Below, one piece after another: positions 4,690-54,805 of a stretch of DNA of 56,161 nt. Position 1 is the stretch's first letter. Every line of letters starts with the position of its first letter. Source of the DNA: Psammoneis japonica (taxonomy: Eukaryota); NCBI GenBank assembly GCA_008632985.1, contig QPGO01000127.1:186001-242161 (forward strand), given 5' to 3'. The notes below the pieces were generated by a model. That model was not told where the DNA came from, ran no database searches, and saw only the letters and a list, made by a program, of their open reading frames with translations. The position numbers were made by a program, and so were the translations under genes.

Positions 4690-5760
4690 TCATTTGTTAC
4701 TGTTCGTGTGCGCTTTGTCGTCATTCATAGTGTTGGGTGCAGTCAACTCTCGAACAACACAATCTTTGGGAAGGAGAGTCAGGCATGGACTCGTTCTTCC
4801 AAACATTGGGAGTGGTTTGAGATCTCTATTTCACTCGAAATGTTTTTGAAAAGTCTGTCCTTCTTTTGCCTGACTCATTTTTGTCTTCAAAGTGTCCATT
4901 CCCCTCACAATGCTCTCCTCCACAACAAGGGGATTCTCCTCCCATCTCTTTAGAGGACTGAGTTCAGTGTCAATCCTGCGTCCCATGTGTGTGAAAGAGT
5001 GCAGATGTTGGCGGCATTCACTTTGTTCTTGTCATTCCATCCACAACAGAAAGTTGGACTCCCGCCCCTTGCCATCTGGAAAAGCACCTTTGAACCCCAA
5101 CATTTTGGTTTGCTGATTTGAAGTTCAACAGGAGCATTCTGGAACAGGGCGTCCACTTCTGCATTGAACAAAACCAAGTTGTGACCGATGTTCATTGTTT
5201 GCATGTGGTTCACAAATTCAACCTTGTGCTGACCGGCGGTGCTGTCAGTGGACTTGCCCATCATGAAGCACTCAAATTGAAATGCTTGAGACTGACAATC
5301 TTGTTTGCATTTGAAAATCATTGCACTTTGACCATTGAAAATTGCACCAAAAGTTTGGGCTGCACATCTCATGTGAAAAGGGGGGCATTTTTCGTGCATG
5401 TGCGCACCTCGGTCGGTCTGAAATAAGTCAGATGACCTCTCCTCCTTGGTTGTTGCAGACACCTTGTGCACAGTTGGCTTTTTCACCACACAAAATTCAA
5501 GCTGTTTTGCTCTTCCAGTTGGCGCTCACCAAGCTGCTTTGAACAAGTGCTCTTTGACTTTGCACAGCCACCACGTGCTGTGCACAAGAAAAGAGCGCAG
5601 ACAACACCTCTGAGAATCTCTTTTTGTGCTCTGAGCATGAGATATTTCCGAGACCTTGAAACCCATCATGCCCTGCAATTGAAGTGCCTTTATGTTGTGA
5701 AACTCCGTCTTGTAGCTGTCGCAGAGAGAGCTCTGCATGCGGCGATTTGCGGAGATTCAA
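4690..5760 (-). mobile_element. Degenerate retroelement fragment, possibly Penelope-like reverse transcriptase; TpA-depleted
   Basis: ORF 4950..5489(-) contains 'LVLFNAEVDALFQNAPVE', resembling the PLE RT motif 'LVSFDVxSLFTNVPV'. The block is almost devoid of TpA. Confidence 0.45.
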
Positions 5761-5915
5761 GTACAGTATGTGCGTCGTACGTACCGGGATTACTTCAGTA
5801 GTGGCCGCAGCTCACTGTTATCTGTTATCTGCTGATGTTGTTGATGCTTGATGTTTGATGGTTTATGGTTTAGCTTTCTTTGCGACTCTCTGTAGTAGAA
5901 GAAGAGTTGACAAAA

Positions 5916-6779
5916 ATGGAGAATACGATCTGCTTTAACATGGTTTATGGCTTGCTATTTCTGTTCATGTCCCATCTTTGTGTGTCTCATGGGTTGAGTT
6001 TCAGTCGTAGTCAAACAAGAGCTCGTACGCAAGATCCATGTGCTGATCGTCGCACGCTTCTCGGTTCTCTAGCTGGGACCTTGACAATTGCTGCTACCAA
6101 CCCTTCGTTTGCGGAGGATGAACAAGAGATTGAAGTGTATTTTGGTTGTGGTTGTTTTTGGCACGTTCAGCACGAATTTGTGGAGGCAGAACGTCGCATT
6201 CTGGGACGCAAAAGCGACTCGCAACTCACGGCACGGGCTGGGTATGCGGGCGGAAAGGCTGGAGCCGTCGACGGCAAGGTGTGCTATCATAATGCGGGTA
6301 TGGTTGCTGATTATGGTAAACTGGGACATGCGGAAGTGGTGCGATTGAAGATACCTGCCTCGTCGTTTACAGACTTTGCAACCGAGTATTTCAACTTGTT
6401 TGATAAGGATGGGAACCGTCCTGATCAATTTGGAGACCGAGGTACGGAGTATCGAAACCTTGTCGGTGTACCCGGGGGAACTCAGTCGGAATATGCAAAA
6501 CAACTTGTGGCGGCCTCTCAAGCTGCTGGGGATAAGCTAGATTTTGCAAAAGGCAAGGGAGACGATCCCGATGCCCGTGCGCTAGCCTTTGTCATGGATA
6601 CCGCTAGCTTTCCCTTTTTCGTTGCGGAGCAATACCACCAATTTCATGATGGATTCAACATTGGAGAGAACTATCCAAACTCCTACAATGACATCGCGAA
6701 CAAATTGTCCAAGGAAGGCACTCTGGGTGTCAGCAAGTGTCCCAACGGATTGCTAGGTATTGGGGCCTTGGGGTTGTAG
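5916..6779 (+). CDS. Peptide methionine sulfoxide reductase MsrA-like protein with N-terminal targeting peptide
   Basis: YFGCGCFWHVQ (MsrA GCFW), GYAGG, GHAEVV, GTEYR, AEQYHQ motifs. Signal-like N-terminus followed by RRTLL (possible thylakoid-targeting motif). Confidence 0.85.
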   Translation: MENTICFNMVYGLLFLFMSHLCVSHGLSFSRSQTRARTQDPCADRRTLLGSLAGTLTIAATNPSFAEDEQEIEVYFGCGCFWHVQHEFVEAERRILGRKSDSQLTARAGYAGGKAGAVDGKVCYHNAGMVADYGKLGHAEVVRLKIPASSFTDFATEYFNLFDKDGNRPDQFGDRGTEYRNLVGVPGGTQSEYAKQLVAASQAAGDKLDFAKGKGDDPDARALAFVMDTASFPFFVAEQYHQFHDGFNIGENYPNSYNDIANKLSKEGTLGVSKCPNGLLGIGALGL

Positions 6780-7862
6780 CACCTCAGTTGTGTTCAAAGA
6801 AATCTACATAAGAACGTGGCACAGCGAGAAAAGGCTCTGTGAAAGACAAGTCTAGCAGCAATGTATCTGACGAAACAAGCTGTTGTTGGCTTGTATTGCC
6901 GGAATGATTAAGCCTTTTTACGTACTTTTCGTCCCATGGCATATAATTCGCTTCGTTATACTCTCCTCCCACTAGTAGAGAAGCTGAAAAGCTTCAGAGT
7001 TTTATCTGAATCGCTGTCTTTACCTGTTACACAGCTGGCGGGGGAGCCACTCTGGCAATAATGGCTGCAGCCGCTTGCCGAATTGACTGCAGTGAGCTGC
7101 AATCTACACAGAAACAGTGCATGCATTCGCGTCTCCGTTGAGGTTCGGTTCCACAAATGCAGCACCTCGAGGCACAACAAACAAAATGGTCCCTGGGTCA
7201 TTGAATGGAATTGATATGTTGCGGAGGAATTGCTGTCGAAAGCGACGGCTCTTGTAAGTACGAACTGCGCCAATGGTGAACTGGAAGCACCAAAGGTCAC
7301 CTTTCGAGCCAACGATAGCAAAAGAAATAACGTGGCTTGTGTTTGGAGGGGTGGAGTGCTTTCCTGAAGCTGCTGTTGGATGGACTGGCCCAGCTGGCAG
7401 ATGACAGACCCACTTTAATGGCAGCATTTTGCAAACGGGCCAGTTTTCACGTTGCAGCCATGAAAGAAGCAATGTACGTGAAAAGAGAAACCGTTGAAAC
7501 TAACTTGTTTTTGAACATGAAGAATATTGGACATACTAGCTAGGTTTTGACTGACCCGAACTAGTGTGGAGTATGGCCCTAGCACTTAAAACTTGGTTTT
7601 CTATAGGACCATTGCTGTGCCGTGGGTACGAAGCAAATGATTATCAAGGAGTAATGCTGTAGGGTCCCACGACTGATAGTTTTCACCACAGTGGCTTTCC
7701 AGTGGCACTTTTGAATGGCTTGGCGGGGGAAGTTGTGGGGATCGACGACACATCTCTGCTGGGTGGCTTGTCGTTGCTCTGGAGTCTGGATCTATTTGTC
7801 TCCATTCCAATCTTCCCAAAGGTCTACTAGATAGCTTCCACCATGGCAGTTGTCAACCTCTT

Positions 7863-9315: not shown

Positions 9316-12300
9316 ATGGCGGCTCGTTCGGAGACCACGACACTTCTATCACCTGCGCATAACCATCAAAGTACGGCCTCCCTTGTTGCACCTCGTCCAA
9401 TGTCAACAAGAAACAATGGCAGAACCAATGGAAACACTGCTGGTGTGGCTTCAACAGCAATGATCGTCTGGGTGCGCTGCCTCCGCTGCTGTCGTCCAAC
9501 GCTGCGCTGCGCTGCTCGTTGACCAGGATGCAATCCGTGAAGGCATCTGTCAAACTGGGAGATGTTCAGATCAATTTGTAAAAGCCAGATTTGGATTGTT
9601 GGAAGGACAGTCAGTGTCTCTGGCAGACTGACGACCCGTGTCGGCACGTGTTTTTCCACAAGCGATGTGTTTTCATCCCAGGTGAGAAACTTTTGGACAC
9701 ATCACGAGGTTTTCTACGTGTTTCTACATGAGACGTACATTTAGTGCCAAAAATCTTAGTAAAAAACGAGCTCCATGACAGCAAAAATGTGTTTTTCCAT
9801 GTCTCGAACCACAAACCACAATTTGCGCAAACCGAAAATGGCACCATGCCGTCGCCATGAACTCGTCCATTCTCACACCAACGGATGTTGTGACTGAGAA
9901 GGTAAGAATGCCGAGACAGGTCAACAAGACAACGCTCAGTGCGATGATGTGGTTGAAAATTTGATCTTTGTTTTTTGTTGTGCCTTGTGGATGGCCTTTT
10001 GACTCATGACATTTTTGATGCCTCTTTCTCTCTTCCTCAGCTTGCGAAGCAGGATTCTCATCAACGCGCTGCTCCATCCACTTGACACCGGATACTGACA
10101 ACGAAGAATGTTTCTATGACACGTTGCTGTGATTCTTGCAATGTGTCGTCCGCACTTTGAGTCATCATGGACGACGCTTTTGGGTCGCGTGACAACATCA
10201 GATTTCGCCACCGACAAGAGAATCGTCATGTGTTCGGTTTTGAGGGTGTGTGAGGATAAAGAATCTCAGATGCAAGTGTGACAGTTTCATTGTTGTAAAG
10301 TGGAACAATGCCATTAGTGACGTCTTGGTGTTGCAGCCATTTTATTTTATTCTAAGATAGAACCAGTCATTTTGAGCGGTGAAATTTTGTCAACATTTCA
10401 TCTTTAACTCCACTCAGGCATGTCAAATCACACAATGACTGGACACACATTGAACTTTGACGCCACCATTTCAATCCTGTTGTTTTATTCACTCAAGCAT
10501 CCCACACAGGTCGACAGTCGATCTTTGAAGTGGCCGATCGCGCAAAAAAATCACGTGCGAAGTCAGTTCCCCCAATTTTTCTCATGCAAACAATGGAGTT
10601 AGAACGCCGTTCTTTTTTGGTGTGAGCTCTTCACACAATGAACAATGCGTGCATTCTTTCAAAGCAGTCAGATTCGGTGAAAGAAACAGTGGGACAGTCT
10701 CTCAAATGCACCAGAGTGACAACAACGAGCAGACAGCTGTCAGTTTCACTCCAAAAAATGCCGCTTTCAAGACAGCGCTTTTCTTGCACGCACCCTTCAA
10801 CCAATGAGAATGGCGGCTGGCTTTTCAAAATAAACATGTCTGTGGAAAGAAGAAACGAAAAATCGGGGGAAAGTCCAGTCAGATTTGCTCACACAAAAAG
10901 CACGGCGACGGAAAAGGGACAGATGAAACGTCTCACCTCCGCACACGCGTTTCTCACCTGGGATGAAAACACATCAAGCTGCCCAGTGTCTGGCAAGAAA
11001 GTCAACAGGAGTGTGGCACAATGGCCAAAAATGGGAGGCAGACTAAAGAGAGAAAGACTTCTGAGCCTTTTGGGTGCCACCCACAAGTTGACGATTCTGG
11101 GTCATCATGTGGCCGCAGCTGCCAAAAACAGATTCTTGGCATCAGAGCGCGATGCTGGCTGTGAGAGCAACTCACGACAGACAACAAGCCACATTTTTTG
11201 CAACATCCGTGTGTGAGGGCAAGCAGCATGCCACCTTGGCAATTGCAACCATGATTGTTGGTGGCATTGTGGAAGAGCAAAAGCTGCACAATTTGTTTGG
11301 CATCAATGATTGCATCCACGGAGCTGTGGCATTGGGTGCATCGATTCAGCAGCACAAGGACATGTCAGAAACACGTTGGCTTTTGTTCATCAGGGAGGGC
11401 CCATTGCCAACTCCCGAAGACACGGCTTGACTGGAAGTGGTCAGATGGACTCTTAATTCTGCACCAACTCTGGACATCTCACCTGAAAATGTGCCAAATT
11501 TTCCACGATGTGAGTGCCTGCACAAATCTGCAGTTGTTTGGTCATTGTGTGAACCGACATCAGCACCACTCACTCCCAATGCCATCTCCTTGTGTTGTTT
11601 CAGCTAAAACAACATGTGCCAAAATGATGGCACTTGGGCTTGCTGAGTGCAAATGTGTTGTGTTTGTGGATGCCAGCGCCCTTGCAGTGGGGCCACTGGA
11701 TGAGCTGCTGGATTGCAAAATCTTTCATGCTGAGCCTCAGTGCAAACTTGCACTGGTGTTCTAGACTGTCATCACTGTCAGTGGCAGCACTTCAACATGG
11801 GCTCCATGTTGTGGCAAACAAGTGCAAAGGAAATGATGCGAGTCCAAAAATTGATGCGTGATGCCAGCTTCATAAAGAGATTTGAGAGTGATCAGATCTT
11901 TCTCAACCATGTTCACCCAGACCAAATGAACAAGCAAGTGTGCCAAGTGGTTGTGAGTGGCGCATGAGTTGTCAAAAAAGAAGACTCCTGGGGTGCTGTC
12001 TTGGCTCTGTCATGGGACTGCAATGCACAAACACATGTCACAGTGAAGCTCAAGGATCGTTGGATGACACACCAATCCACAGTGAAGATTGCTCGCTTTT
12101 CAGAAAAGAGAGGTTGGCAATGTGAGGAACGCCATGAACCACTGCCATTGCTGCTGACTGCTGGGCACAAAACCCAAAAAAGATGCAACCGCAGTGCTCC
12201 CATGTGCTTTTGCCGTGAAGCTCACTTGTGGTGGGACACTTTGCACAGAGCAGAGCAAATCAGCAAATTGCAGTTTAGGAGCAGCAGCATTCTCATGTCA

Positions 12301-12317
12301 CAGCATGGCACAGCATG
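9316..12317 (+). pseudogene. Glycosyltransferase family 8 (glycogenin/GUX-like) pseudogene, TE-interrupted and hypermutated
   Basis: Decayed GT8 motifs across frames: 'DCIHGAVALGASI', 'TCAKMMALGLAECKCVVFVDASALAVGPLDELLDC', 'HFNMGSML', 'SDQIFLNHVHP'. Consensus Tyr positions read Cys/His. The 5' part at 9316-9663 is inferred. Confidence 0.75.
9664..10975. mobile_element. Non-autonomous TIR DNA transposon, 27-bp perfect TIRs, 4-bp TSD AAGC
   Basis: GATGTGTTTTCATCCCAGGTGAGAAAC at 9664-9690 and its reverse complement at 10949-10975. AAGC at 9660-9663 and 10976-10979. Confidence 0.88.
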
Positions 12318-14167
12318 ATTGACGAGTCTTGTCCACATGTTGTTGAGGGTGTTGATGTTTGGGTTTTTGAGTGCAAGACTTGGAAAACTGCGTTTGCCTG
12401 CCATGCAACAGTTTGGCTTGCTCAAGAGGCACATTCTGCCATTTCTTCACAGGCACGCGCATGTGGTTTCCATGCCAGTTCTGTGCAATGCAGCTCCAGA
12501 TTGGGTCTGCCATCTGTGAAGAGCAAGCAAGTCTAGATTGAGCCCGCTGGCAGCGAAGAGCAAGCAAGTCTTGTCTGAGATGTCTGCAGCAGCAACAACG
12601 ATGGAGGCAGGCCCTGTGGCAGACTGCTGTTCAAAACAGAAAGCCGCTTGGTCTTTCAATGTTTGGCTTTCCACAGAGGCACTTGCTTGGTTCGTCATCA
12701 TTGCAAATTCAGTCTTTGACCAGAGTCGCCTCTGGAGCAATTGGGGGCACCATGACCATCCAACTTGGCCTTTTGTGGCACCATCTTCAGGCAATCAGCC
12801 ACTGCAGCTGCCACCTGCCTGTTGCAGATCATCTCTCACGAGTGCCTTGTTGCTGCTGGCTTGGTGGGAGCATCCTTCAGCACCTCTCCTTCTTTCACTC
12901 AGAGCCCTTCTGGGCTTGGCAGGAGGGCCGTTGGACCTTTGCTTTGTTGGCTCCTGCAACAGCCGATCTGGACATGAAGTTCATGGTCTTTGCTCTGCTG
13001 CTGACACTTCCAGAACATTTTGGCCTGCCAAGGCTCCCACGCTCCAGCTTGTTCATCTCTGCCATGGAGCTCCTGCTGGCACACTTTCGGCGGCTCTTGG
13101 AGGTGGCTTTCACAGCCAACAACCTCTCTCCACTCTTCTCCACAGAGTGCCTCCTCTTTGCTCCTCTTCACCAGCTGCTGCTCAATCTTTTGCTGTGCAC
13201 TCACAAGGTGTGCAAACATTGGGAATTGAGCAAGGCACATCATCTCGCCCACTCGTTTCACTTCTTGTGCTGCCTCGTGGAGCTGTTGGGCTTGCTCTTT
13301 GCTTGGGACTCACAGGACAGGCTGGTCCATCTGGTGGCTGATTCCCACTGCAGCTGCTCCAAACTGCCCGTGCTGAAGCCAACTGTGCAGTGTGGCAGAG
13401 TGTGTCAAATGATCACAGCCATCCTGGCACACTGGACAGAACAAACCGTCAGCCCATTTGAGACAAATCTGCACTCTGACATGAGGTTGTGCTCTGCCCC
13501 ACCTGATGTGGTGCCAGCTCCCTTGCCAACAGCAGCATGCAAAAATGCTCTCTGGCTGCTCCCGCTGGATCTGCAGACCCACTCTCTCAAAAAGGGAAAA
13601 AGCTCAAGGAAGGGTCACCAAAGATCTGCACTGTTGCTGGCAAGTGCCTGTTCAAACAGAAATCTGAGGCTGACACCTGCAAATTTGGGGATCTTTTTGT
13701 TCTCTCCATGCGCACAGCCCACCTTCTGTCACCACCACAGGCACCAAGAAAGGAGCCAACATTTGTTTGTCCTTCACGACAGAAGGTGGACCCAACCCGG
13801 GATGCACCAACAAGCACTGCTCCATGTTGCACATTGATCTGGCAAAGAACAAATGGACCTCATGGCCGGTCGGCAACTTCGCGGACTTGTGTGATTGGAT
13901 CCATTGCCCAGCCATCACAGCGAAGCTGGCCCCTGCTAAGGCCTTTGCTGAATTGGTCATGTTTCAGCCCACAGCTTCATCTGAGGCATCCAGCTGGGAT
14001 GCATGCCACCCAGCATCGCTGTCGCCTCTCTCGCCCATGAGCCCAAAGAGCCATCTGACAGCGGTGATGGCTGGGGTGTCCCCCTTTCTGGGCTCCTTTG
14101 TCAAGCTGAGAAAAAGAAAGTGAAACTTGGCACTCACACACATCCCGCCCTCACATTCAAAGCTGGA

Positions 14168-14258
14168 ATCATTTTGGAATGAGATCCCATGGGACACAGT
14201 CCGGTCAAAGGATCATGTTGTCTTTGACATTCGTTGGTCTCAATTTAAGCATCCCCAA
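14168..14258 (+). repeat. ~90-bp dispersed repeat, second copy at ~24831-24920
   Basis: Both copies contain CGGTCAAAGGATCATGTTG and end in CAATTTAA(G)CATCCCCAAG; probably a decayed TE terminus. Confidence 0.75.
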
Positions 14259-15139
14259 GTGAGAGGGTGGGCCGACAATCTTGCTGGGGCCAAAAGAGTT
14301 TCCAAGGCCGTCATCAACATGCAGAAGAAAGTTTTCAAAGTGAGGAAGGGACAAAGGAACATGGAAGACAACAGGGAGGGGACGTTCACCATCGGCCGCA
14401 AGTGCCAGGAAAAAGAAAATGACAGATTGGAAGTGATGCTAAGTTGGTGGAGGAATTGGAGGACTCAAGGAGGACAGTGACAGGGTGGAAGCTTGAGGGA
14501 AAAGCAAGGAGGAGCTGAAGGATCAAAGAGAAAATGGGCAAAATGGGGTGGCAGTGGAAGGACTGCAAATGGAGGAAAATGGGACGCAGATGAAGTGCTC
14601 GCGCAGAAGGTGATCAGAGGAAGAGTGATGTCATGGCAAGTGAAGCCTGGCAAGTCTGCATTGGAGCAATGTTGATGCAGCAGATGAAGAGGGATGAGAT
14701 TTGGAGAGTCTTGGTGACACCAAGTTTTGGAGTCAAAGGTTGGGGAATCAGAGCATGCGGTTGTGTTGCCAGCAGCAGGATGAAGTGAAAAGAGAAGGAA
14801 AAGAAGGAGACCATCATGTTGGTGGTGCAGCTGTGCTTGATGGAGCGTGGATTGTTGTCAGAGGAGGATGAAGCATGAAAGACATCAGAAGGATGGCAAA
14901 GGTCACCAGAAGGATCATCAAATGGATCTGGGTCAAAGAAATGCTGGCACATGTCAAAGTGACAATCAGCAAAAAAAGGCTGGCAAGTGCCTGGTCAAAG
15001 ATTCTTGTGTGTCATGGGAAAACTGCTGGCTTTTAATCCAGCAGAGTGACACAGCAGTTGGCAACCAGCACAATTGCCGAAGGTGTTGGCATGGTCATGT
15101 TGAAGGAAGGAAAAAGCAAAAGTGTTGAAACATCATTGT

Positions 15140-15570
15140 TGCAGTGTGCCTCGCTGCTGGACAACACGGCGAGACCGTGCATGAGCCTCTTGTGTGTGGC
15201 AACGTAGTGTTGTTAACACGCACCTGGGAAGCACGACCACAGGAGGGCGTGGCTCCAGGTCTCAGGCAATTCCAGATGGATGCTGAGAGAGCATCCGTGT
15301 GAAGCACACTAGCCCGTCGTCTGGCCCACGATGGCAGCGTGATTCCACACGATGACATCACTCGTGCATGGCGCGTGATGGCTTCATTCACACGATCCAC
15401 AATGCGAGTGCACGATCGATTCAATGCGATCCAAATGCGAACGAACAGGGATTTGGCAAGATTCCCCATTCGCACGATCCCATTTTCTCTGCTCTGAACT
15501 GGCCCACAATTTTCACAATGACAAAGTCGTAACACATCTTCTTTTCAGCGCCCAGTGCATGCACAGGGCA
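15140..15570 (+). repeat. 5' LTR of Gypsy-1
   Basis: Direct repeat of 22437-22867. Confidence 0.95.
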
Positions 15571-15664
15571 CAGCAATGTTGCTCCCGCACATTGTGCGAG
15601 GTGACGAAATCTGCAGAAACGAAACTGCGAAATGTTGGCAGGACCGACAAATCTTAAAACGACC

Positions 15665-18600
15665 ATGAAGAAGCGGATTGAGCCACCGACTCCATTTGCA
15701 CGGCCAGAGAAGAAAGAGCTGCAGCAAGGCGAGTGCCAGACGTTCAAGCTGCGTAACAACCCCACTGATCCGGACAGTCCAATGCACAAGATGGGCATTC
15801 CGCACCTTTCTGCGGCTGCATGCAAGACACTCCTGATCTTTCTGTGCAACGTGGATCGCGTGCACGAAGGACAAAACATCACGACCGGGCCAGCGAAATT
15901 TGCCCTTGTGCGTGACCTGCTGCAGGGCGATGCTCTGACGTCATTTGACAATGCCGCTGACAAGCAGGCATCCCAAACCAATGCTGCATGCGCAGCATGC
16001 GTCGCAAAGCTAAAGGAAAGTGTCTTCCCACATGGGGCGGCACCATTGCAGAAGCGTTGTCTGAGGCGCTTCATGTGCAAGCCCGCAGAGGTTTCTGCTC
16101 GTGACTGCGTCGCGAGGGCTGTTGAAATTAACGGCCACATCTCTCAGTTTCCACCCGTGACGGAGGATGGAGAAGCACCGGCACCATCACCTGATGACGA
16201 ACCATGCAACATGTTCAAGTGCGGTGTGCCGAACGCATGGCAGAAGTTCATGACGCTGCAGAATTTTGACCTGTTGGTGCGTGCTGTCGCCGAATTCATG
16301 CAGTTCTGTGAGCGCATCGAGCAGGTCGAGCTTGCCGAAGGTAACCAGGACCAACATGCTAAGGTTCCACACAAGCGGGGACGTAGAACGGACAATCCTG
16401 AGTCATTGATCACGACCCAACGGAACACCCAGAAGTCGTGCACGCTGCACGGGACTAACTGTGGACATCATGCGGAGGATTGCCGTCAGCTCAAGCACCA
16501 CACGGTGCCAATCTCAGTGACATGGCATCGCAGAAACATGTTCTTTGTGCCAGAGACACACATTTATGAACAATGTGTTTCGCTGGCAGCACTGCCGACA
16601 GATTTCTCTTTTTTCCACACTTCACCGTGACGAAAAAAATGGTGAGTCGCCGTTGCTTTCGACGATGTCGTTCGCCAGAAGTGATGAGTGCGAGTGTGAT
16701 GTTTCAACAAATTGTTGCCAATCAATGTCAGCACTGACGACATCACCAAAAACATCACACTCACACTCATCAGGAGACCGTTTTTGGACGATGCCACTGT
16801 TGGCACCGCTGCAAAGCAAAATGGCATGTGCAGCTGCTTTCGACGATGTCGTTTGCCAGAAGTGATGAGTGCGAGTGTGATGTTTTGACAAATTGTTGCC
16901 AATCAACGTCAATGCCAATGACATTGATAAAAACATCACACTCATGTTCATCAGGAGACCGTTTTGTGACGACCCTGCTGTTGGCACCGCTGCAAAGCAA
17001 AATGGCACGTGCAGCTGCGCTGTTGATGACACAGTTTGCCGAAAACAACACGTGTGAGGACCATGTTTTGATGCAACATTGGTGTTCAATGTCAATGCCA
17101 ACCACACATGCAAAAACATTGCTCTTGCACTCATCAGGAGACCGTTTTGTGACGACCCTGCTGTCTGCTGTTGTCGCCGTGACAAATGTTTCAGCATGTT
17201 CCCTCGGCGAGTCAAAAGTTGGGAATGCTCGTTGCTTGTTCACTTTGGCTCTTGTGGTCAGCTCTCATGCTGTCTTGTGGACACATGGGAATGGAAAAAT
17301 GGTGCTCACGAAGCGCACTGCCATTTGGTGGTGGCTTTGATGCGCCCAGACCAGTCCATCTCGTCGTTTTTCAGCATGTTCCCTCCACCGAGTCAACAGG
17401 CAAGAACACTCATTGCGCTTTCACTTTGGCCCTTCTAGTCATCTCTCATGTTGTCTTACAGACACATGTGAGTGCAAAAACAGTGTTCAGGGAATGCATT
17501 TGGAGGCCCTCTGATGGCTTGTCCCGTCTCTTCCGTTCGCCGTCGGCAGTTTTCGGAAGGTTCGCACTTCAGTGCGTCATTCCAGTTCCTCTCTTTGCAC
17601 CTGATTGGCTTGATGTTTGCCACAATGACATGCAAACAATCCACAAAAAACAACTGTGTTGCACTGGGTTTAGAAGTTCTTCAGACAGCAGGAGCGACTA
17701 GCCACCCCCTGACCTTGACGACCAAATGCGCCCAAAAATGCCAAGTTCCGGCCTCTCCTTGTGCCACCAAGGTCGCAAATTGCAATGAGTCAAACATGCA
17801 TCTCGTCATGACAACCCAAAACAATGTTGGATGCACTGTTGCAATGCGGCACTCTGCACCGTTCCCAGCCCCACAAGCGACCGGCAACTGCAGACCGAGG
17901 ACCAAAGCTCGAAACAAAAATGTTGTGTTCCAGCCTCTCATTGCACCACCAAGACCGCATGCTGCAATGACTCAAGCACACATCTCGTCATGACGACCCA
18001 AAGCAACACTGGATGCCCTGATGCAGTTTTCTGCATCATTTCCAGCCCCACAAACAACCGGCAACCAACAACCAGAGAAAACAAAAAACCTCCATGTCCA
18101 TCTAAATGCCAAAGAAACATGAAACCTTTGGAAGATTCCAACAAAACAACTGCACCACCAAACTCAGCGTGTTCGAATCACCTTGCACCAATGTCATTGA
18201 CGCCAAAATGTCGTCCCACTGATGGCCGATTTGTGAACAGAGACAAGTTGCGGAGAAAACAAAAAACTACCCTGTCCATCCAAATGCCAAAGAAACACAA
18301 AACCTTTGGAAGACACCAAAAAAAAACCAGCACAATCGTGCTCATTACACTCGAATTGCCTTGAATCAATGCTCTTGACCCTGTGACATTTTCCCAGTGA
18401 CGGTGCATTCATGAACGCCGTGCCGCCATGGTTGTTTTGTTCTCGCCTTTTTCACGAGTCCAGACAGTTTTTGAGGTTGTGGGCCCAAACCACACTGTGT
18501 CGCTCCGCGCGCAGAAAAAAAGCACCGTGACCACGTGAAACGTGTCAAGACTGGACGCTCCAGTGACGGAGGCAGCAAGCCCAATGCAAAACCTCGGAAT

Positions 18601-44806: not shown

Positions 44807-44832
44807 GGTTGTGTGGATATGGAATAGAAGTG

Positions 44833-47800
44833 TGCCGAGTATCGCGGTCATCTATATTCATTCGTATATTCATTCGTGGGTGTCAACCTGGTGTCAAAAG
44901 TGTCAAAAGGATGTCAACGATGACACTTTCTAGAAACCTCTTCTCCTTTCTCGATACATCTCGATGCCTTTCGAAAGATTGTTTCTTTATATTTCTACGC
45001 GGTTTCTTAGTATTAATTCTACGAGATTTCGGAGTAGCCGAATCTCTTTCATTTCTTCTCACAACATTAGCAACAGTCAACTTTACAACGCTACTTTATA
45101 CTATTACTTGGCGCCACTTGGCATAGTAAATTTACTCCCAAACACTTATTCATCTCTCTTGAGATATATCTACCGATCATATTGTCCTGACCAGACATGT
45201 CAGCAGAAAACTGCCCATTCGAACTTGAGCGTCCTGACCGCTCTGAGGAAGAGCGACGCAAAGACCAATTCGTGTCTTTTGAAAGCCCCATTGATCCTGA
45301 CGATCCAGATGGGCTTAAAACTACGATCGAGGTACGTAAGTTAGCTTCAACTGAACCGGAAGATGTTCTTACCTTCTGGTCAAACTTCGATGAACTTATC
45401 AACGATCTCGGTGCGGCTGAAGGACAGCCACGTTTCCGGCTCGTGACCAGACTTATGACCGGAACACCAAAAGACGACTGGGAAATCGTCGTAGACGATT
45501 ACGAAAACCGCGACCAAGTTACATTCGATACTTGTCGTGAAGAATTTCTACTCCAACACATGGATAGAGAAATTGCCCTTGATGCTAAGGAATGGCTTCA
45601 AAGCCTTAAGAAACCCAGGAACCAAACTGTCAAGTCATTTGTTAATGACATCCGTCGCTTTAATAAGTTGATTAATATCATGCCTACGCCAACCGAAGAT
45701 GACGCCGAAAGAGTTCCGTCATTCACGGAAGCGGAATTATCCGCAATCCTTCGAAAATGTGGACCAAGATCATGGGCCGAAACTCAGACTAAAGCCCGTC
45801 TTCGCAACTTAAACTTGAACGACCAAGCTCAATACTACGAGACTCTCCGACGTATGGAACGACGTGGTGACAAAGGGTCTACCGACAACAACAGACGCAA
45901 CAACAATGGGAATCAACGCAACAACGGTCGACATGCGCGTCACGGCCAGAACAACGACCAAAATCGCGATGCCAGGAACAGGAACCAAAACAATCGTGAA
46001 CAAACATGTCCAATCCATGGCGTTGTACATCCGAACGGTCAAGAATGCAATATCATCCGTCGTGAACGTGAAAATTATGAGCGGAACCGCGCAAATCGGA
46101 ATGCGCCGAATCAACAAAATGACTCTCGAAACGAGCCGACACACCGCCATCCCACACGGAGCCGCACACGGAACGTCGAAAACAATGATGTGGACTCCAA
46201 AGCCAGTCGCTCCGCTTCTAACGATGTCGATAGCGTCGCGTCAGACGATGTCAACGACATTTTTGAAGACGTCACGTCTCTTCTAGACGATTCCATCGAA
46301 TCCGAAATAGAAGACAATCTTACCACGGAAGCGCGTGTCCAGATGATTGATGCTCATTCTGGAATGCACAAGTTCCGTGTTGCTCTACTCGATACCGGCG
46401 CAAATCGCAATTTTGTGAAGCGCTCAGCCCTTCGCGGGATTCCTCACAAAATCCGTAAATGTAACGTTCCCGTTAAAGGCCGTTACAGTGCCGTTAATCT
46501 ACACGAGATTGCGACGCTGACATTGAAGTTCCCAGACTTCGCATCGTCCAAGAAGGTTTCCGTCGATGCTCATGTGGAAGACAAAGCCGTAGGAAAACAC
46601 GACATTATCATCGGAAGAAAAACCGCCACAGAAATGGGACTCGTTTTTGATTTTCGACATCAAACAATCACGTGGGGCGATGTTACCCTATCCATGCGAT
46701 CCAAGGGCTCTTTCGACCAAGTCGAAGTTAATGCAATTCATCCCGGCGATGCTGAATTACCCAAGTTCTTCCAGAATGCCGTCAACCGTCAGGTTCGAGG
46801 TATGACGAGCAATGCGTACGACAAGCACAATTATCGCGACATGGTTCTACGCTGCAAACACCTTGATGACGATCAACAGCACCAACTCATCGAACTCTTC
46901 GGACGATACCCGCAATTATTCGATGGCACACTTGGAGCTGTACCCGGTAAACCCGTCCATTTGACCCTGAAACCAGGATCGCGTCCGTACTGTGCGAAAG
47001 CTTGCACTATTCCGCAAGCGTTACATCCCATGGCTCGCAAAGAAGTGGATGAATTGGAAAAAATCGATGTCACCACGCGCAAACTTCACTCTCCTTGGGG
47101 CGCACCCTGTCTTTTCCGATCGAAGAAAAGCGGTGGTATCCGTTTCTTATCCGATTTACGGAAACTCAACGAGTGTCTCGAACGGCATCCATGTCCACTA
47201 CCTGTTGTCGACGACGTCGTATGGAAAATGAACGGCTTTACCCATGCGACATGTTTGGACCTCAACCGAGGCTACTGTCACTTCGTGCTTGACGACGAGT
47301 CAAAAAAACTCTGCGGTATCATCCTGCCGTGGGGCAAGCATTGCCACAACCGCCTGCCGCAAGGAATCAAACCGGCAAGCGATGTTTTTCAAGCTTACAT
47401 GACAGATGTTTTTCATGATGTGGAAGACATCACAGTCTACATCGACAACATCATCCTCTTTACCAAGAACAACTTCAACCATCACTGTCAACGACTCGAA
47501 CTCGTCTTGCAACGGCTCCTCGCGAACAATCTTCACGTACATGTCGAAGAATCCTATCTCGCCGCCAAGACCGTCGACTGCTTAGGCTGTGCCATGACTA
47601 CAAAAGGTGTTCAGCCTCAGAAAAAGAAAATCCTACCCTTGCTTCGCTTCGCTCGCCCTCAAAACCGTCGACAATTACGTGGTTTCATCGGGTTCGTGAA
47701 TTATTACAAGAAATTGTGGCACCGACGCAGCCACACTCTTACGCCCTTAACTGCGCTGTCATCAGACAAAGTCAAATTCAAGTGGACTGACGTCCACACG

Positions 47801-49735
47801 GAAGCTTTCAATCAGATGAAAAAAATTGTGGCGCGCGAAATCCTCCTCCGATTCCCCGACTTCTCTCAACCTTTCAACATCTATCCGGATGCGAGTGATT
47901 ATCAACTTGGTGCAGTAATTGCTCAAGATTTTGACGATGGCGAATGGCCAATTGCATTCCACAGCCGAAAATTATCTCAAGCGCAACGAAACTACACGAC
48001 AATGGAAAAAGAGCTGCTGTCGCTCGTGGAAACGACCGAAAATTTCAAAAGCATCCTTTTTGGTCATCGATGCTACCCACCCACCGATCACAAAAATCTT
48101 ACATTTGACAAATTCAAGTCAGAACGCATCAAACGCTGGCGTTTACTTCTCGAGGAATACGATTGCTCTTTCGAGTGCCTGCCAGGCCACAAGAATGTCG
48201 TGGCTGATTTTTTGAGTCGCCACCCCATTGTCCAAGTCGATCAAAGCGATTACGAGGAAATGACTTCGTTGGAAATCGATCCTTCAATATTCCCCGTTAC
48301 TTTCGACATTATCGCCGACCATCAAAAAAAAGATTCTGCTCTTCAGCAACGACTCGACAAGTCCGAATCCTACTCAGCCGAACTGTTCAACGGAAAACAG
48401 ATTATCCTTTACAAGAACAAGATTGTCCTCCCTCCAATGCTTTTTCCTGCAGTTCTACGGTGGTGCCATGAAACTCTCTGCCATCCTGGTGCCAATCGCA
48501 CCTGCCAAACTTTGGCTTCACATTTTTACATTCGCGACATGCAGACGAAAGTCCGTACTTTTGTCCGTAAGTGCCGCACGTGTTCCAAATCCAAGCGTAC
48601 TACGGCAAACTATGGCGAATTACCTCTTCCAGATACTGCTTATAAACCTTGGCAGGCAACTCAAGTCGATCTTTTCGGTCCCTGGACGTATGCCGACAAA
48701 AATGGTGTCGATCGCAAAATCAGAGCCGTTTCAATTATTGATGTCGCAACCCGTTGGGTCGAACTCGGCGAACTATAAGTTCAAAAACGTCCGAAGACAT
48801 TTCACTTATCGTCGATCGCGAGTGGTTTTGTCGCTATCCGCGACCAGAAATTGTCATTTATGACAACGGTTCCGAATTCACTTCCGAGTTTACAGATCTC
48901 CTCTACAGTTATGGTGTTAAACCGAAACCTACAACAATCAAGAATCCTCAAGCCAACGCGTTCGTTGAACGTATTCATCAAGTGATAGCCGATTCTCTCC
49001 GTGCGATGGATCTCCCTTCTCGCGATCATGATGAAGACACAATTCATGGAATTTTGCAATCCGTTGCATGGGCCTTGCGCAGTACCTACCATACTGCCCT
49101 TATGTCGTCTCCCGGACAAATTGTCTTCGGTCGAGACATGATCATTTCTGCTACTTATCTTGCGAACTGGAAAATGATTAATACCCGTCGCAAGCGCGAT
49201 GTCCTACGCAATAATCTCCGCGAAAACGCAAAACGTCTTACTTACGACTACAACATCGGCGATCAAGTCTTCGTTATGACCAAAGACATCCAACGCAAAC
49301 TCAACACCAAAGATGGTCCTTTCTGTATCGTACGTGTCCATACCAATGGAACCGTTACCATCCAGCGCTCGCCTCACGTCACTGAACGTATCCATATCCG
49401 CCGTCTTCACCCTGTCTTCTAACGTCTCAATTGGGGAAGCGAGTGCCGAGTATCGCGGTCATCTATATTCATTCGTATATTCATTCGTGGGTGTCAACCT
49501 GGTGTCAAAAGTGTCAAAAGGATGTCAACGATGACACTTTCTAGAAACCTCTTCTCCTTTCTCGATACATCTCGATGCCTCTCGAAAGATTGTTTCTTTA
49601 TATTTCTACGCGGTTTCTTAGTATTAATTCTACGAGATTTCGGAGTAGGCCGAATCTCTTTCATTTCTTCTCACAATATTAGCAACAGTCAACTTTACAA
49701 CGCTACTTTATACTATTACTTGGCGCCACTTGGCA
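44833..49735 (+). mobile_element. Ty3/Gypsy LTR retrotransposon 2 (young, full length)
   Basis: LTRs TG...CA at 44833-45123 and 49444-49735 with 3 differences, TSD AAGTG, PPT GGGGAAGCGAG. Confidence 0.97.
45197..49422 (+). CDS. Gypsy-2 gag-pol polyprotein, one frameshift near 48765, RT active site YIDN
   Basis: LLDTGA protease, RLPQG and YIDN in RT, DASDYQLGAV RNase H, HETLCHPG..CRTC, DNGSEF, PQANAFVERIH. Confidence 0.93.
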
Positions 49736-50643
49736 AAGTGACGATGAGACGCAAACAACGAATACAAGAGCAAAAGCAACAAGCAACGGCACGACTCAAA
49801 GATGTGCAGAAGGATCTTCGCTGAAGATTTTATGGATTCGTTGAAGAGAAGTTCTGGCCAGCTATGTTTATTATCATATATTCATGACTAAAGATTTAAT
49901 TAAACGAACACATATCGTAGATTCTACGTGGGGTTAGTATGAGACGTAGCTTTGACACCAACACCCACGGCGGCGGCGGCGTTCTCGTCTTTTGCTTGGT
50001 CGCGAAAAGAAAAAAAGCACAATCAGCCCAATAAGATGTGTCTTACAGAGAAAGAATCAAAAGATCGCAAGCTGATCGCAATTGTCATCTATTGACTATT
50101 CGTTTACAGCTTTTGAAGACTTGAAACTCACTGGAAATTTCGAAAAAGCGCATGCCCAAGATCGCCCAAAGATCGATCGTCGGAGCAGCGGGGAATGAAT
50201 CACACGCACCAAAACAACAACGGTGGCGTATGTGGCGTGTGTGGTGGCGTCCGCGTAGTATGATGATGGACCGACATGACAACTTCTGCGGCGCTGTGTT
50301 GACGACGGGGACGATCTGATTTTTAAAAAAGCAGCACACACCAAAAATACAACACAACATGACTAATGACGAATGTGAGTCTTTCATCCAGCTTCTATGC
50401 CATGCACAAAGCATTGTAAGAATCATTCAATATATGTCAATTGGAGAATAAAAGCTCATAACGCCGATTACGGTGTAAGACACATGCACCCAGCTTATGT
50501 TACCCAGCTTTATGTGTCGTTGTTTTTATTGTACAGTACACAAAATGCCCAATTTAAAATAGCAAACAATAAGGCCGACTCCACATCGCAAAAACCAAGA
50601 CGCCAGAATTTGAAAATGATCTGACTTTGGTCACTATTTTTTT

Positions 50644-51579
50644 TTAACAATGCGATTCTACTTGTAGTGACTCGTCGTCGTCCAACACAGTTTCACCATC
50701 ATTTTCATTCTCCGTGACTTCCACTTCAACAAAGCGCTTGCGAAGAATTGGAGACAGTAGAAGAATAAATGCAGCAACAGCGGCACAACTAATCGAAGCG
50801 ACACGCATCCGCCGGAGTCTGGTATTAGAAGGGATATCCCAGCAAAAGGAGCAGCCTGCACTTTCGCCGACGCGAGCGGAACAAGTGTCACAATCTCCGT
50901 AGGCAATAATGCTCGGCCAATCCACATCATTCGAGGGGCCCACAAAAGGATCGTAGGGAGTATAGTTGGCGGCTGGGTCATATATGCTCTCCGCAAGAGC
51001 CATCAAGTTTTTCAATGCTTTATCAACCTTGGCGTCAGGGCAGGACTCGTGAGAATCGCACGCCAAAGAACTGAAATAGATCAGTTCTGATGAAATCGTG
51101 TCGTTATTGCATATGACCGGCTCCTCGGTCTGGTCCATTCTTGGGCAAGCCCATTCATAACCCCAATCCACAGCAAAAATGGCATCATAATAGAGGTCAT
51201 AGAAAGGCCCTGCTTTTTCGCTCCTGGTGTCCTCCAATCTCGTCTCGTAGCGAACCCCAGTCACGCGCATTTTCCCTTGATAGTCAATCACGTCCCGGGT
51301 TTTGAGGCGTCGTTCATAAGCCTTGGCAATGCTGCTGGCCACAATGAATAAGAAAAAGGAGAATAGAATGGTAAAATAGAAGACAGCAGTTCGTTTTGCG
51401 AGGCGAGATCGGATGTCTTGGCGGAGCCTGAGTTCTCTGTGCCGTTCACACTTCCAGGAGCACACACACAGTGATGCAAAGAAGAGCACTAGCGAAGCAA
51501 GAAGTCCATAATGGGCAAGGGTGCTGGCGATTTCGGGGTCAATTTTTTCAGTATGGCTTTCAAGAATGTTCTCGTCCAT
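50644..51579 (-). CDS. Membrane protein (about three TM helices, Cys-containing luminal loop), function unknown
   Basis: 311-aa ORF with normal composition and three hydrophobic segments. Confidence 0.75.
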   Translation of the reverse strand: MDENILESHTEKIDPEIASTLAHYGLLASLVLFFASLCVCSWKCERHRELRLRQDIRSRLAKRTAVFYFTILFSFFLFIVASSIAKAYERRLKTRDVIDYQGKMRVTGVRYETRLEDTRSEKAGPFYDLYYDAIFAVDWGYEWACPRMDQTEEPVICNNDTISSELIYFSSLACDSHESCPDAKVDKALKNLMALAESIYDPAANYTPYDPFVGPSNDVDWPSIIAYGDCDTCSARVGESAGCSFCWDIPSNTRLRRMRVASISCAAVAAFILLLSPILRKRFVEVEVTENENDGETVLDDDESLQVESHC

Positions 51580-52069
51580 GTGAGATTCTGTTTCAACAGA
51601 ATTTGTGAGACGAGATCATCCTTCTTTTTTTGTCCAATCACGAATCACCAGCAAACCACGATCCACGACCTGACCGCGCATGACCCGCGGTTTGCCGAAA
51701 CTCGGCAACATTCAGGAAACATGACACCACACAACTCCAATCTTCACACTCTGCCGCAAGCCAAATCTGTCCTTGCCACAAGGGCACGGATTCTTGGCCT
51801 TCAGAGCCTGGTGCACCCCAAATTTGGATGGATGGCTTTGTGCAACATTTGGTCATCCTCTCTCCTGCTGTGCACACACCAGCAAGGCACGGCGAGATCT
51901 CTCTCTCCAAGAGAGATGTGTTTTTCTCTTTTTTGAGCTTGCAAAAAGGCTTTTGGTGACAGAGCCAGGTGCACTGCACACATGGCACAGCAGGAGAGGC
52001 TTGCAAGCTCAAGAGAACATCTGTGCGCAAACCACCAATTTCCATGAAAAAAAATGGCTTTGACAGCAG

Positions 52070-54805
52070 GAGCAGCCATGTCATGATTTTTAGCCAGCCC
52101 AGAGAGTTTTCAGCTCCCCCAAAAGGCAAAAGAGAGCATCAAAGTGCCACACAGAAATGATGTGTTCGAGCCATGCATGAACCAAATTGGGCACAAAAAT
52201 GACATTTGTGTGGTTTTCCACGTGGGCTCTAACTTGTGGACAAGCTTTTGCCGCAGCAAGCACAGATTTGTCCAAGCGCTGGTGTTTTTCAATGCTGGCA
52301 AAACTTGCTGCATCAGTGTTGCAGCATCATTGTTTTTGTGCTGCCAATGCACTTCATTGCAACAAACAAATCACAATGCAGTGGATGATTTTTGTTCATG
52401 AAAAATGTCAAAAATTTGTGTGCACCAAGTGGTTGCATGTCAGCACTGGGGTGGTTGTTTGTGACATTCCTGGCAGGCAATCTGCCCACAAAAGCTTTGC
52501 CATGCCCAGTGCACTGTTGCACAATCAGTGCTGAGTCCACTGCAGAGGAGTTTGTGGCACATGTCCCATGAGGACTCTTGATTGAGTGGTGCCACAAAAA
52601 ATGTTGCCCAGCTGTTCATGCTCCAGACACTGGCAAAAGCCCACATGATTCTTTGCACTTAAAATGGGTTGTTGTTTTGTGTGGCACCTGGGGCTGGAGA
52701 GCACATCAAACAACAAAAAGAAAATGGCAGATTCAGGGGAAAAATGACCCAAGAAATGACACAAAGCCGCTTGCGCCAAACTTGGAAATTGAGTCTGAGC
52801 ATGCACCAGGAACAGGAAAGGAAAAAGAAAAAAGGAGGATCAGATGGCAAGCTTCAAGAAAAGAAGCTCAACAAAAAGCTTGCCCAGACTCTCGTCCCTC
52901 TGTGTGTGTTGTTCTGCGATGTCTGCAGCACCGGCTTTGGCTGGGTGCTTGTGTCATCATTGTGAGCTGGCTGTTGCATCTCAGAAAACAAAAGCTCTGT
53001 TGCAGCCAGAAAAGCAATGCAAAAAGATCATGTGTGCAACATGGCAGCCTGCTTGCAAGAAGTCCCCAGCCGGGCCACAGGCAGACCCAGGGCAAACATG
53101 TGCCTTGATGACGCTGTGCATGCCTGCTTCTCTGCTCCTTTCTTGGTGGCGATCATTGCTCAACAAATGTTGGCAAAGCTGCAAATCTGTCTGTTCCTTC
53201 TCTGCTCCTTTGTGGTGATCTTCAAATTTGCAACCACCAATCCATCTCTGATGCCAAGCACACAGGCCACATTGACATGGCAGATCCAGCGTCTCACCTG
53301 CCTCCATCTGTCACATCCGTCCGTGCTGCCTTCGTGACTCGTGACTGATGTTTTTTGTTCTTTCCACCGAACTTCTTACGTCACACGTGCGTCATAGAGC
53401 CTTTGACACGTGGGCAACCCGAAAAGTTGAACCGCTCTGCGAGCAGCCATGTCATGATTTTTAGCCAGCCCAGAGAGTTTTCAGCTCCCCCAAAAGGCAA
53501 AAGAGAGCATCAAAGTGCCACACAGAAATGATGTGTTCGAGCCATGCATGAACCAAATTGGGCACAAAAATGACATTTGTGTGGTTTTCCACGTGGGCTC
53601 TAACTTGTGGACAAGCTTTTGCCGCAGCAAGCACAGATTTGTCCAAGCGCTGGTGTTTTTCAATGCTGGCAAAACTTGCTGCATCAGTGTTGCAGCATCA
53701 TTGTTTTTGTGCTGCCAATGCACTTCATTGCAACAAACAAATCACAATGCAGTGGATGATTTTTGTTCATGAAAAATGTCAAAAATTTGTGCGCACCAAG
53801 TGATTGCATGTCAGCACTGGGGTGGTTGTTTGTGACATTCCTGGCAGGCATTCTGCCCACAAAAGCTTTGCCATGCCCAACGCACTGTTGCACAATCAGC
53901 ACTGAGTCCACTGCAGAGGAGTTTGTGGCGCATGTCCCATGAGGGCTTGATTGAGTGCCACAAAAAATGTTGCCCAGATGTTCGTGCTCCAGACACTGGC
54001 AAAAGCCCACATGATTCTTTGCACTTAAAATGGGTTGTTGTTTTGTGTGGCACCTGGGGCTGGAGAGCACATCAAACAACAAAAAGAAAATGGCAGATTC
54101 AGGGGAAAAATGACCCAAGAAATGACACAAAGCCGCTTGCGCCAAACTTGGAAATTGAGTCTGAGCACGCACCAGGAACAGGAAAGGAAAAAGAAAAAAG
54201 GAGAGGATCAGATGGCAAGCTTCAAGAAAAGAAGCTCAACAAAAAGGCTTGCCCCAGACTCTCGTCCCTCTGTGTGTGTTGTTCTGCGATGTCTGCAGCA
54301 CCGGCTTTGGCTGGGTGCTTGTGTCATCATTGTGAGCTGGCTGTTGCATCTCAGAAAACGAAGGCTCTGTTGCAGCCAGAAAAGCAATGCAAAAAGATCA
54401 TGTGTGCAATGTGGCAGCCTGCTCGCAAGAAGTCTCCAGCCGGGCCACAGGCAGACCCAGGGCAAACACGTGCCTTGATGACGCTGCGCATGCCCGCTTC
54501 TCTGCTCCTTTCTTGGTGGCGATCATTGCTCAACAAATGTTGGCAAAGCTGCAAATCTGTCTATTCCTTCTCTGCTCCTTTGTGGTGATCTTCAAATTTG
54601 CAACCACCAATCTATCTCTGATGCCAAGCACGCAGGCCACATTGACATGGCAGACCCAGCGTCTCACCTGCCTCCATCTGTCACATCCGTCCGTGCTGCC
54701 TTCGCGACTCGTGACTGATGTTTTTTGTTCTTTCTACCGAACTTCTTACGTCACACGTGCGTCATAGAGCCTTTGACACGTGGGGCAACCCGAAAAGTTG
54801 AACCG
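52070..54805 (+). repeat. Tandem duplication of a ~1.37-kb decayed TE-like segment (52070-53434 and 53441-54805)
   Basis: Both copies start GAGCAGCCATGTCATGATTTTTAGCC and end CCCGAAAAGTTGAACCG. The TpA-depleted block begins at ~51690. Confidence 0.92.

Follow-up and report, generated by a model that had tools for sequence, protein, structure and literature searches.

A probable locus-targeted TpA to TpG/CpA mutation process in mobile or foreign DNA of the diatom Psammoneis japonica

TpA-depleted blocks and the elements of the window

The stretch of contig QPGO01000127.1 of the diatom Psammoneis japonica analysed here (56,161 bases, referred to as the window) holds host genes, two Ty3/Gypsy long terminal repeat (LTR) retrotransposons and a set of sharply bounded blocks in which the dinucleotide TpA is nearly absent (Table 1). 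One host gene encodes a PMSR domain, and a piece of it recurs inside a depleted block. One of the two Gypsy elements is itself strongly depleted and lies within older depleted DNA, and the other has normal TpA and served as an internal control. The blocks are probably mobile or foreign DNA of the diatom chromosome that was subjected, after its integration, to a locus-targeted conversion of TpA to TpG or CpA running about two orders of magnitude above background, a process of the same kind as that reported for the chlorarachniophyte Bigelowiella natans (Mettrop et al., bioRxiv 10.64898/2026.01.13.699255).

The observed-to-expected ratio (o/e) of TpA is 0.07 in the pooled blocks (116 TA in 26,849 bp) and 0.59 in the rest of the window (1243 TA in 29,312 bp). 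At the TA density of the rest, 1139 TA would be expected in the blocks, and the Poisson probability of 116 or fewer computes to 0. The blocks are also poor in CpG (o/e 0.42) and rich in TpG (1.75) and CpA (1.70), the corresponding values outside being 1.03, 1.19 and 1.18. In a 500-bp profile TpA falls to 0.00–0.10 of expectation inside the blocks, accompanied by TG+CA of 1.6–2.0, and the transition at the block edges takes place within less than about 50–100 bp. The longest TA-free run measures 1403 bp and the next one 1009 bp. Measured against the rest of the window, the blocks are short of 1023 TA and 792 CG and carry an excess of 1821 TG+CA; the lost TA and CG taken together (1814) thus nearly equal the gained TG and CA. 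The fraction TG/(TG+CA) is 0.39–0.54 across single blocks, which means that both strands are affected. TpA depletion is therefore confirmed as a real observation. The initial annotation had described blocks almost free of TpA and rich in TpG/CpA next to genes with normal TpA, and both descriptions hold; the recomputed limits differ from the earlier ones by about 100–260 bases. By the thresholds of the B. natans preprint (Rho TpA at most 0.43 together with Rho CpA+TpG at least 1.52 in 1-kb windows), 23 of the 56 1-kb windows qualify, and three runs comprise at least three consecutive windows (bioRxiv 10.64898/2026.01.13.699255).

None of the 146 open reading frames (ORFs) of at least 75 aa in the old depleted blocks matches Pfam at E ≤ 1e-3, and no terminal repeats that could delimit elements were found in these blocks. 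The depleted blocks keep only TGA as a stop codon, and all six frames are full of long ORFs (up to 431 aa) without homologues, which is a trap for gene callers. The longest of them (12542–13834) has no relative among 1.84 billion representative proteins and is probably spurious, owing to the loss of TAA and TAG stops.

Table 1. Positions of depleted blocks, mobile elements and reference segments in the window (TA, CG, TG and CA ratios are o/e)
Feature	Positions	Strand	Description
TpA/CpG-depleted block between two host genes	4952–5643		692 bp; 1 TA (0.02), CG 0.37, TG 1.78, CA 1.72; no Pfam match
Unmutated source segment	6396–6875	+	PMSR-domain gene 5880–6779 (Pfam PMSR) and its 3' flank
Second block, recomputed limits	9373–18808
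Old depleted block	9373–15139		5767 bp; 32 TA (0.09), CG 0.41; part 9373–10500 only partly depleted
Hypermutated Ty3/Gypsy LTR retrotransposon	15140–22867	+	gag, protease, reverse transcriptase, RNase H, integrase; within older depleted DNA
5' LTR of the mutated Gypsy	15140–15570	+	92.1% identity to 22437–22867
TpA-normal patch in pol of the mutated Gypsy	18809–19790	+	62 TA in 982 bp (0.90), CG 1.10
Third block, recomputed limits	19791–29777		broken by the TpA-normal 397-bp insert 21960–22356
Miniature inverted-repeat transposable element (MITE) in the mutated Gypsy	21960–22356		397 bp; TA 0.85, CG 1.44; very high copy
3' LTR of the mutated Gypsy	22437–22867	+
Most strongly depleted block	22868–29777		6910 bp; 21 TA (0.04), CG 0.16, TG 1.78, CA 1.91; low copy
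Hypermutated copy of the PMSR-domain gene, 3' part	27919–28390	+	79.4% identity to 6396–6875
Depleted block	35143–36891		1749 bp; 1 TA (0.01), CG 0.27; summed depth 15,994 at 35342–36008, partly high copy
Depleted block	38582–40953		2372 bp; 4 TA (0.03), CG 0.12
TpA-normal Gypsy (internal control)	44832–49739	+	LTRs 44832–45127 and 49443–49739; pol domains by Pfam
Depleted block	51553–54562		3010 bp; 8 TA (0.04); 1.37-kb tandem duplication 52070–53434 and 53441–54805

Conversion of TpA in a host-gene copy and in a Gypsy element

A depleted block 21 kb from the PMSR-domain gene contains a copied fragment of this gene, which extends past the stop codon and is about 10% diverged from its source besides the TA and CG sites. 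With the source segment taken as a proxy for the ancestral state, all 17 of its 17 TA are converted in the block copy, 11 to TG and 6 to CA, and 18 of the 20 CG are altered. Outside TpA, A>G is found at 9 of 107 and T>C at 6 of 88 positions. The claim that TA is changed both to TG and to CA, that is, by A→G at TpA on either strand, is thereby upheld, and the spectrum check proposed along with it does reveal an excess of A→G at TpA over other contexts.

The mutated Gypsy was recognised by its Pfam domains (RVT_1, RT_RNaseH_2, Integrase_H2C2 and rve) and by tblastn alignment to the other Gypsy of the window. Its TA o/e is 0.10–0.16 at a CG o/e still of 0.83–0.88, the older DNA around it having values of 0.04–0.09 and 0.16–0.41, respectively. 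The two LTRs differ by 8 double changes of TG versus CA, by 8 sites with TA in one LTR versus TG or CA in the other, by 7 sites with CG versus TG or CA and by 3 other differences. A TG/CA double change looks like two independent strikes on one ancestral TA. By maximum likelihood the ancestral LTR had 24 TA, of which a share of 0.79 was converted in each copy; per base, TpA conversion then runs at about 166 times the background and is about 13 times as fast as CpG decay. These ratios are rough, the background being represented by 3 differences.

The proteins encoded by the element reflect the same change. Among the 34 Tyr residues of the TpA-normal Gypsy, 12 align in the mutated one to Cys, 8 to His and one to Tyr. 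In 15 of the 16 columns with conserved Tyr (120 relatives) the residue of the window is Tyr three times, His five times, Cys five times, and Trp and Met once each; in the columns downstream of nt 19790 Tyr is retained in 0 of 9. The Tyr of the YxDD motif of the reverse transcriptase (RT) is changed to His. Other conserved residues are mostly retained (Gly in 13 of 16 and Arg in 15 of 17 cases). The even share of Cys and His and a TG/(TG+CA) close to 0.5 (0.47–0.48 in this element) show that both strands were mutated. The motifs in which the initial annotation had read Tyr as Cys or His (THLDD, ECLGC, SCCRD, DASKCQLG, WCHETL and RCPWP) are all present, but the Cys of ECLGC and WCHETL is also found in the TpA-normal Gypsy, a caveat for these two motifs. 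That element has Cys at both ECLGC positions, which are occupied by Tyr in 92% and 87% of the 120 relatives of the mutated family. The aligned sequences support the reading that the process destroys transposon genes, by changing Tyr to Cys or His and by removing the stops TAA and TAG.

The alternative that the elements were TA-poor from the beginning, by the composition of their donor or by avoidance of TA, would agree with the mildly low TpA throughout the rest of the window. It deserves practically no credence, since pre-existing TA were converted in the host-gene copy, in the LTRs and in a metagenomic relative of the element described below (L017), and since conserved Tyr gave way to Cys and His with destruction of the YxDD motif.

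The process acts at certain loci and leaves others alone, and it outruns the CpG decay and is independent of it. The TpA-normal Gypsy has TA o/e of 0.33–0.76 and CG of 1.19–1.69 over 45001–49500, with an LTR identity of 98.65% (2 substitutions, 1 indel). When TA and CG sites are set aside, the LTR divergence of the two elements is about the same (3/431 in the mutated and 1–2/297 in the TpA-normal Gypsy), yet just one of them is mutated; the process thus differs between loci and is no clock running on all elements. The control element has defects of its own, with YIDN in place of the YxDD motif of the RT and an integrase split over the overlapping ORFs 45197–48778 and 48754–49422.

Copy number was approximated by k-mer depth in one sequencing run (X1, platform off record), which contains 76% of the sampled words of 22000–31999. 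Contigs of this run that resemble the mutated Gypsy have summed depths of 10^3–10^5 versus about 35–55 for unique DNA. The MITE, which has 30-nt terminal inverted repeats (21962–21991 and 22322–22351) and is flanked by an ACAGAC repeat, lies within the bin of by far the highest summed depth (134,523 at 22002–22668), and its absence is seen in contigs joining 21959 to 22356. The most strongly depleted block has a summed depth of 62–182 versus 35–64 for neighbouring genes and is saturated though low copy, depth being a rough proxy for copy number. A trigger by repetition, as assumed in the initial annotation, is accordingly not borne out: a low-copy block is saturated, and the very high-copy MITE and the second Gypsy are untouched. 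Fungal repeat-induced point mutation (RIP) was rejected on the same distribution and on the loss of TpA with gain of CpA and TpG.

Two further observations concern neighbouring genes. The sulfotransferase gene of the window has its best named relatives in Thalassiosira exigua (62%) and Seminavis robusta (49%), in line with a diatom host; an EF-hand mitochondrial carrier yielded no named match of use for taxonomy. Three successive ORFs on the + strand in different frames (30209–32484), the last with a weak leishmanolysin (Peptidase_M8) match, possibly belong to one gene with introns or frameshifts.

Environmental relatives, flank preference and the question of an artefact

The protein relatives of the RT region (120 sequences, all from ENA or JGI assemblies) fall into a clean bimodal split: 6 of them have Cys or His at 53–81% of the conserved-Tyr columns, the rest at 21% or less. 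With a profile of the mutated proteins 78 metagenome loci were retrieved, none of them more than 75% identical to the window at the DNA level. Most are TpA-normal (o/e 0.6–1.0), two (L017 and L071) are clearly depleted and one (L073) weakly. The TpA-normal loci L010 and L006 share 91% identity with L017, in which TA is about 0.2 and CG about 0.95. Polarisation by four outgroups assigns 67 changes specifically to L017, of which 44 are TpA>TpG/CpA and 2 are of CpG type; L010 and L006 have 0 changes of either type each. At the 79 shared TA sites L017 retains TA at 16, has TG at 20 and CA at 34, and outside TpA 8 of its 464 A/T sites are changed. As in the mutated Gypsy, the loss of TpA is here ahead of the loss of CpG. 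Converted sites of either strand alternate without long runs (24 runs versus 26.1 ± 3.4 expected), which disfavours long single-strand patches. L071 contains a 2-kb block (TA 0.06–0.19, CG 0.08–0.39, TG/CA 1.6–1.8) adjoining normal DNA.

Survival of TA depends on its flanks. In the old blocks of the window TA survives, relative to the rest, at 0.28 in YTAR (Y, pyrimidine; R, purine), at 0.029 in mixed flanks and at 0.008 in RTAY (odds ratio 13, Fisher p 6e-18), and CpG survives at 0.24–0.31 without an effect of the flanks. The residual TA of the mutated Gypsy parts are 0 RTAY, 20 mixed and 29 YTAR. In L017 the numbers converted/kept are 19/0 for RTAY, 24/5 for mixed and 11/11 for YTAR (p 5e-4). 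The saturated block of L071 has residual TA in 0 RTAY, 2 mixed and 11 YTAR contexts, the numbers in its normal flank being 24, 46 and 24. The order of susceptibility, RTAY > mixed > YTAR, is hence replicated across data sets. The Gypsy part of L071 (1–4000) is half depleted (TA o/e 0.28–0.54) and retains 2 RTAY, 49 mixed and 55 YTAR; with RTAY nearly gone (2 of the remaining 106 TA), it shows the order of site loss at an intermediate stage. The flanks of 36 polarised events show no clear bias, the signal residing only in which TA survive. At the mixed-flank sites of L017 the converted A lies in pyrimidine flanks 16 times and in purine flanks 8 times, which is not significant and gives a weak hint of a TAY preference. 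TAY would resemble the UAC of the tRNA substrate of TadA/ADAT-type deaminases. A single deaminase behind both the CpG and the TpA changes was considered and dropped, the CpG decay being far behind and free of a flank effect.

These data bear on a by-product of heterochromatin repair, namely error-prone synthesis by Pol eta at the WA motif (W, A or T) or an aberrant glycosylase tied to the repair of 5-methylcytosine (5mC) in methylated repeats. Pol eta is prone to A>G errors at WA, one paper reportedly describes an aberrant excision of thymine by TDG, and the loss of both CpG and TpA from the older blocks would fit such an origin. It is nevertheless improbable, because TpA loss runs far ahead of CpG loss in the mutated Gypsy and in L017, and because CpG decay has no RTAY/YTAR dependence. 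The Pol eta mutagenesis named as a candidate in the initial annotation fits poorly, as the host-gene copy has AA>AG at 2 of 45 ApA (a small sample) versus conversion of every TA.

An artefact of sequencing, basecalling or polishing, a possibility raised already in the initial annotation, would mean that silenced DNA carries a base modification at TpA which is read as G or C, the chromosome itself being unsubstituted. A symmetric modification misread from either strand would yield TG or CA at random, and run X1 is perhaps derived from the sample that was assembled, its platform being off record. However, two contigs of X1 (22838–23950, 1113 nt, and 26406–27073, 668 nt) have 0 differences to the depleted block at a depth of 36 versus about 35 for unique genes, and reads in conflict between strands would not produce such contigs. 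The tandem copies at 52070–53434 and 53441–54805, which are 97.3% identical and 6 bp apart, have their TG/CA states in common, and the older LTR pair differs at 8 such sites; the states are therefore inherited and not set at random per site. The tandem copies differ mostly at CpG versus TpG/CpA, so that CpG decay must have continued after the loss of TpA and the duplication. Among the 40 variants listed of the 984 in X1, other copies have TA at 19 where the window has TG or CA, and the reverse is found once. The B. natans mutations arose in Illumina-sequenced lines (bioRxiv 10.64898/2026.01.13.699255). The strongest argument is that the footprint is present in the data of other projects, both in metagenome assemblies and in 6 of the 120 database proteins. 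A basecalling artefact is thus very unlikely.

There is also a slim chance that the editing took place before integration, i.e., that retrotransposon RNA (by an ADAR-like A-to-I activity) or cDNA was edited and the mutated copies were inserted. The sharp edges coincide with element-like boundaries, the LTRs of an edited cDNA may differ at the time of integration, and ADAR prefers U preceding the edited A, as noted in the Discussion of the preprint (bioRxiv 10.64898/2026.01.13.699255). Such editing would mark one strand, though; the TG/(TG+CA) of the Gypsy and the nearly even replacement of Tyr by Cys and His (12 and 8 against the control element, 5 and 5 in the conserved columns) indicate two, and L017 has no strand runs. 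The host-gene fragment and the low-copy non-retroelement blocks are saturated too, and the older DNA flanking the Gypsy is likewise depleted. Mutations in B. natans arise in situ in single-copy integrated DNA, according to the same preprint.

Comparison with known systems and the proposed process

In the B. natans mutation-accumulation lines, two integrated viral regions accounted for 231 of the 302 mutations (Mettrop et al., bioRxiv 10.64898/2026.01.13.699255). Of these 231, 230 changed A>G or T>C, each in a TpA context; they arose in some lines only, with a rate about 1000-fold that of the genome. De novo mutation of resident DNA at about 1e-7 to 1e-6 per site per generation is characteristic of this system. 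Elsewhere in that genome TpA-poor, CpA+TpG-rich clusters are enriched in reverse-transcriptase and DDE domains. Shared with the diatom blocks are changes of A>G/T>C almost only at TpA and on either strand, confinement to particular regions (of foreign or mobile origin in B. natans, and including a Gypsy element here), activity that is not constant, a rate two to three orders above background, and the footprint of low TpA with high CpA+TpG. The hosts are different, a diatom here and a chlorarachniophyte there, and the target recognised here is an LTR retrotransposon, unlike the giant-virus or virophage inserts of B. natans. Depletion reaches o/e of 0.01–0.16 in the diatom as compared with 0.45 in the B. 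natans NCLDV (nucleocytoplasmic large DNA virus) region, and it is far denser, with 3 clusters in 56 kb versus 124 in the B. natans genome (of which 85 Mb, given as 90% of its size, were callable). A flank preference is seen here, and the abstract, Results and Discussion of the preprint mention neither such a preference nor diatoms. The process in P. japonica is probably of the B. natans kind, in another major lineage. In the open-access literature (PMC and bioRxiv) no other description of TpA hypermutation was found, and none in diatoms. The remark of the initial annotation that no description is known in diatoms holds for this literature; the same kind of process had, however, already been demonstrated in B. 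natans.

Fungal RIP likewise inactivates mobile DNA by mutations in a dinucleotide context and leaves sharply bounded skewed blocks, but it changes C to T mainly at CpA and creates TpA, which is what the present process destroys. RIP requires duplication and a sexual cycle. Decay of 5mC at CpG has the same TpG/CpA products and accounts for the CG deficit of the blocks; unlike it, the process removes TpA, has a flank preference and is about 13 times faster in the LTR pair. CpG decay as the sole cause was rejected, the deficit of TA (1023) exceeding that of CG (792), and it is present as a separate slower process. The distinction from RIP and 5mC decay drawn in the initial annotation is supported by the polarised comparisons (gene copy, LTR pair, L017). 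APOBEC3 and ADAR in animal retroelements likewise leave clusters of deaminase-type transitions which inactivate the element. They act on cDNA or RNA before integration and on one strand, in contrast to the marks on both strands of resident DNA, including non-retroelement DNA, observed here. Photoproducts of ultraviolet light at TpA were rejected, as they would neither make sharp domains nor spare neighbouring genes.

In the process proposed for P. japonica, mobile or foreign DNA would integrate and its domain would become silenced chromatin; a base-flipping enzyme would act on a single base within TpA so that it pairs differently, and the change would be fixed by replication as A:T→G:C. The process may be a defence or a by-product of a chromatin mark. 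As for the chemistry, adenine deamination to hypoxanthine, the leading guess for the enzyme, is a real possibility somewhat short of an even chance, thymine oxidation is unlikely, and close to an even chance is left to some other reaction. The authors of the preprint propose an ADAT2-like adenine deaminase as a candidate (bioRxiv 10.64898/2026.01.13.699255). Oxidation of thymine would mean that a TET/JBP-type oxidase makes 5-hydroxymethyluracil (5hmU) or 5-formyluracil at TpA of silenced DNA, which mispairs with G and gives T>C. Since TA>CA reads as TA>TG from the opposite strand, the target base is indistinguishable from sequence, and the palindromic RTAY preference suits an enzyme reading double-stranded DNA. 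The 5hmU of dinoflagellates and the base J of trypanosomes are found mainly at TpA-type sites, and 5-formyluracil can pair wrongly with G. The present data offer no support for enzymes or bases of this sort in diatoms, and the preprint authors favour adenine deamination. It is a doubtful, if conceivable, extension that diatoms and chlorarachniophytes share a chromatin-guided DNA base editor which reads RTAY in silenced foreign DNA, converts A:T to G:C and acts as a mutagenic defence widespread in marine protists.

Several points weigh against the proposed locus-targeted process. Its support in this diatom consists of sequence comparison, and the rate ratios are rough, with just 3 background differences behind them. 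The Gypsy is the only target recognised as mobile; the one host-gene fragment apart, the older blocks have no recognisable content. L017 and L071 come from metagenomes. Run X1 may derive from the assembled sample, in which case it lacks full independence. The TpA-normal 982-bp patch lies within a continuous pol alignment, has sharp edges on both sides and contains few of the variants listed in X1; it is possible that it arose by ectopic gene conversion from an unmutated copy or is an assembly mosaic in a high-copy family. That the domains are silenced chromatin is deduced from a single trait, the co-located CpG loss, with which the placement of 5mC on transposons by diatoms is consistent. ADAT2/3 is, to our knowledge, universal in eukaryotes, and its presence would not discriminate. 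Finally, the older blocks are also CpG-poor, and the B. natans preprint reports no C>T excess, so that the mechanism need not be shared.

In practice, proteins predicted from such blocks are free of Tyr and rich in Cys and His, long ORFs may be false, and age estimates from the LTRs of such elements come out far too high if TA and CG sites are not excluded first. A TpA-erasing mutator has so far been reported once, in a preprint on one chlorarachniophyte (bioRxiv 10.64898/2026.01.13.699255). What is new here is the near-saturation, the LTR-retrotransposon targets, the RTAY preference, the separation from CpG decay and the on/off behaviour at the level of the locus. The enzyme is constrained by these properties: it prefers RTAY and YTAR is resistant to it, it acts on both strands without runs, faster than and independently of CpG decay, and locus by locus. 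The saturated footprint in a diatom, together with those in unrelated environmental contigs, suggests that the process is widespread in marine protists. Comparative gene hunting becomes possible, by asking which deaminase or oxidase families track the footprint across genomes, and the question shifts toward a group with genetic tools. Were a base editor indeed shared by diatoms and chlorarachniophytes, it would amount to a natural editor of adenine (or thymine) in DNA that serves as a mutagenic genome defence.

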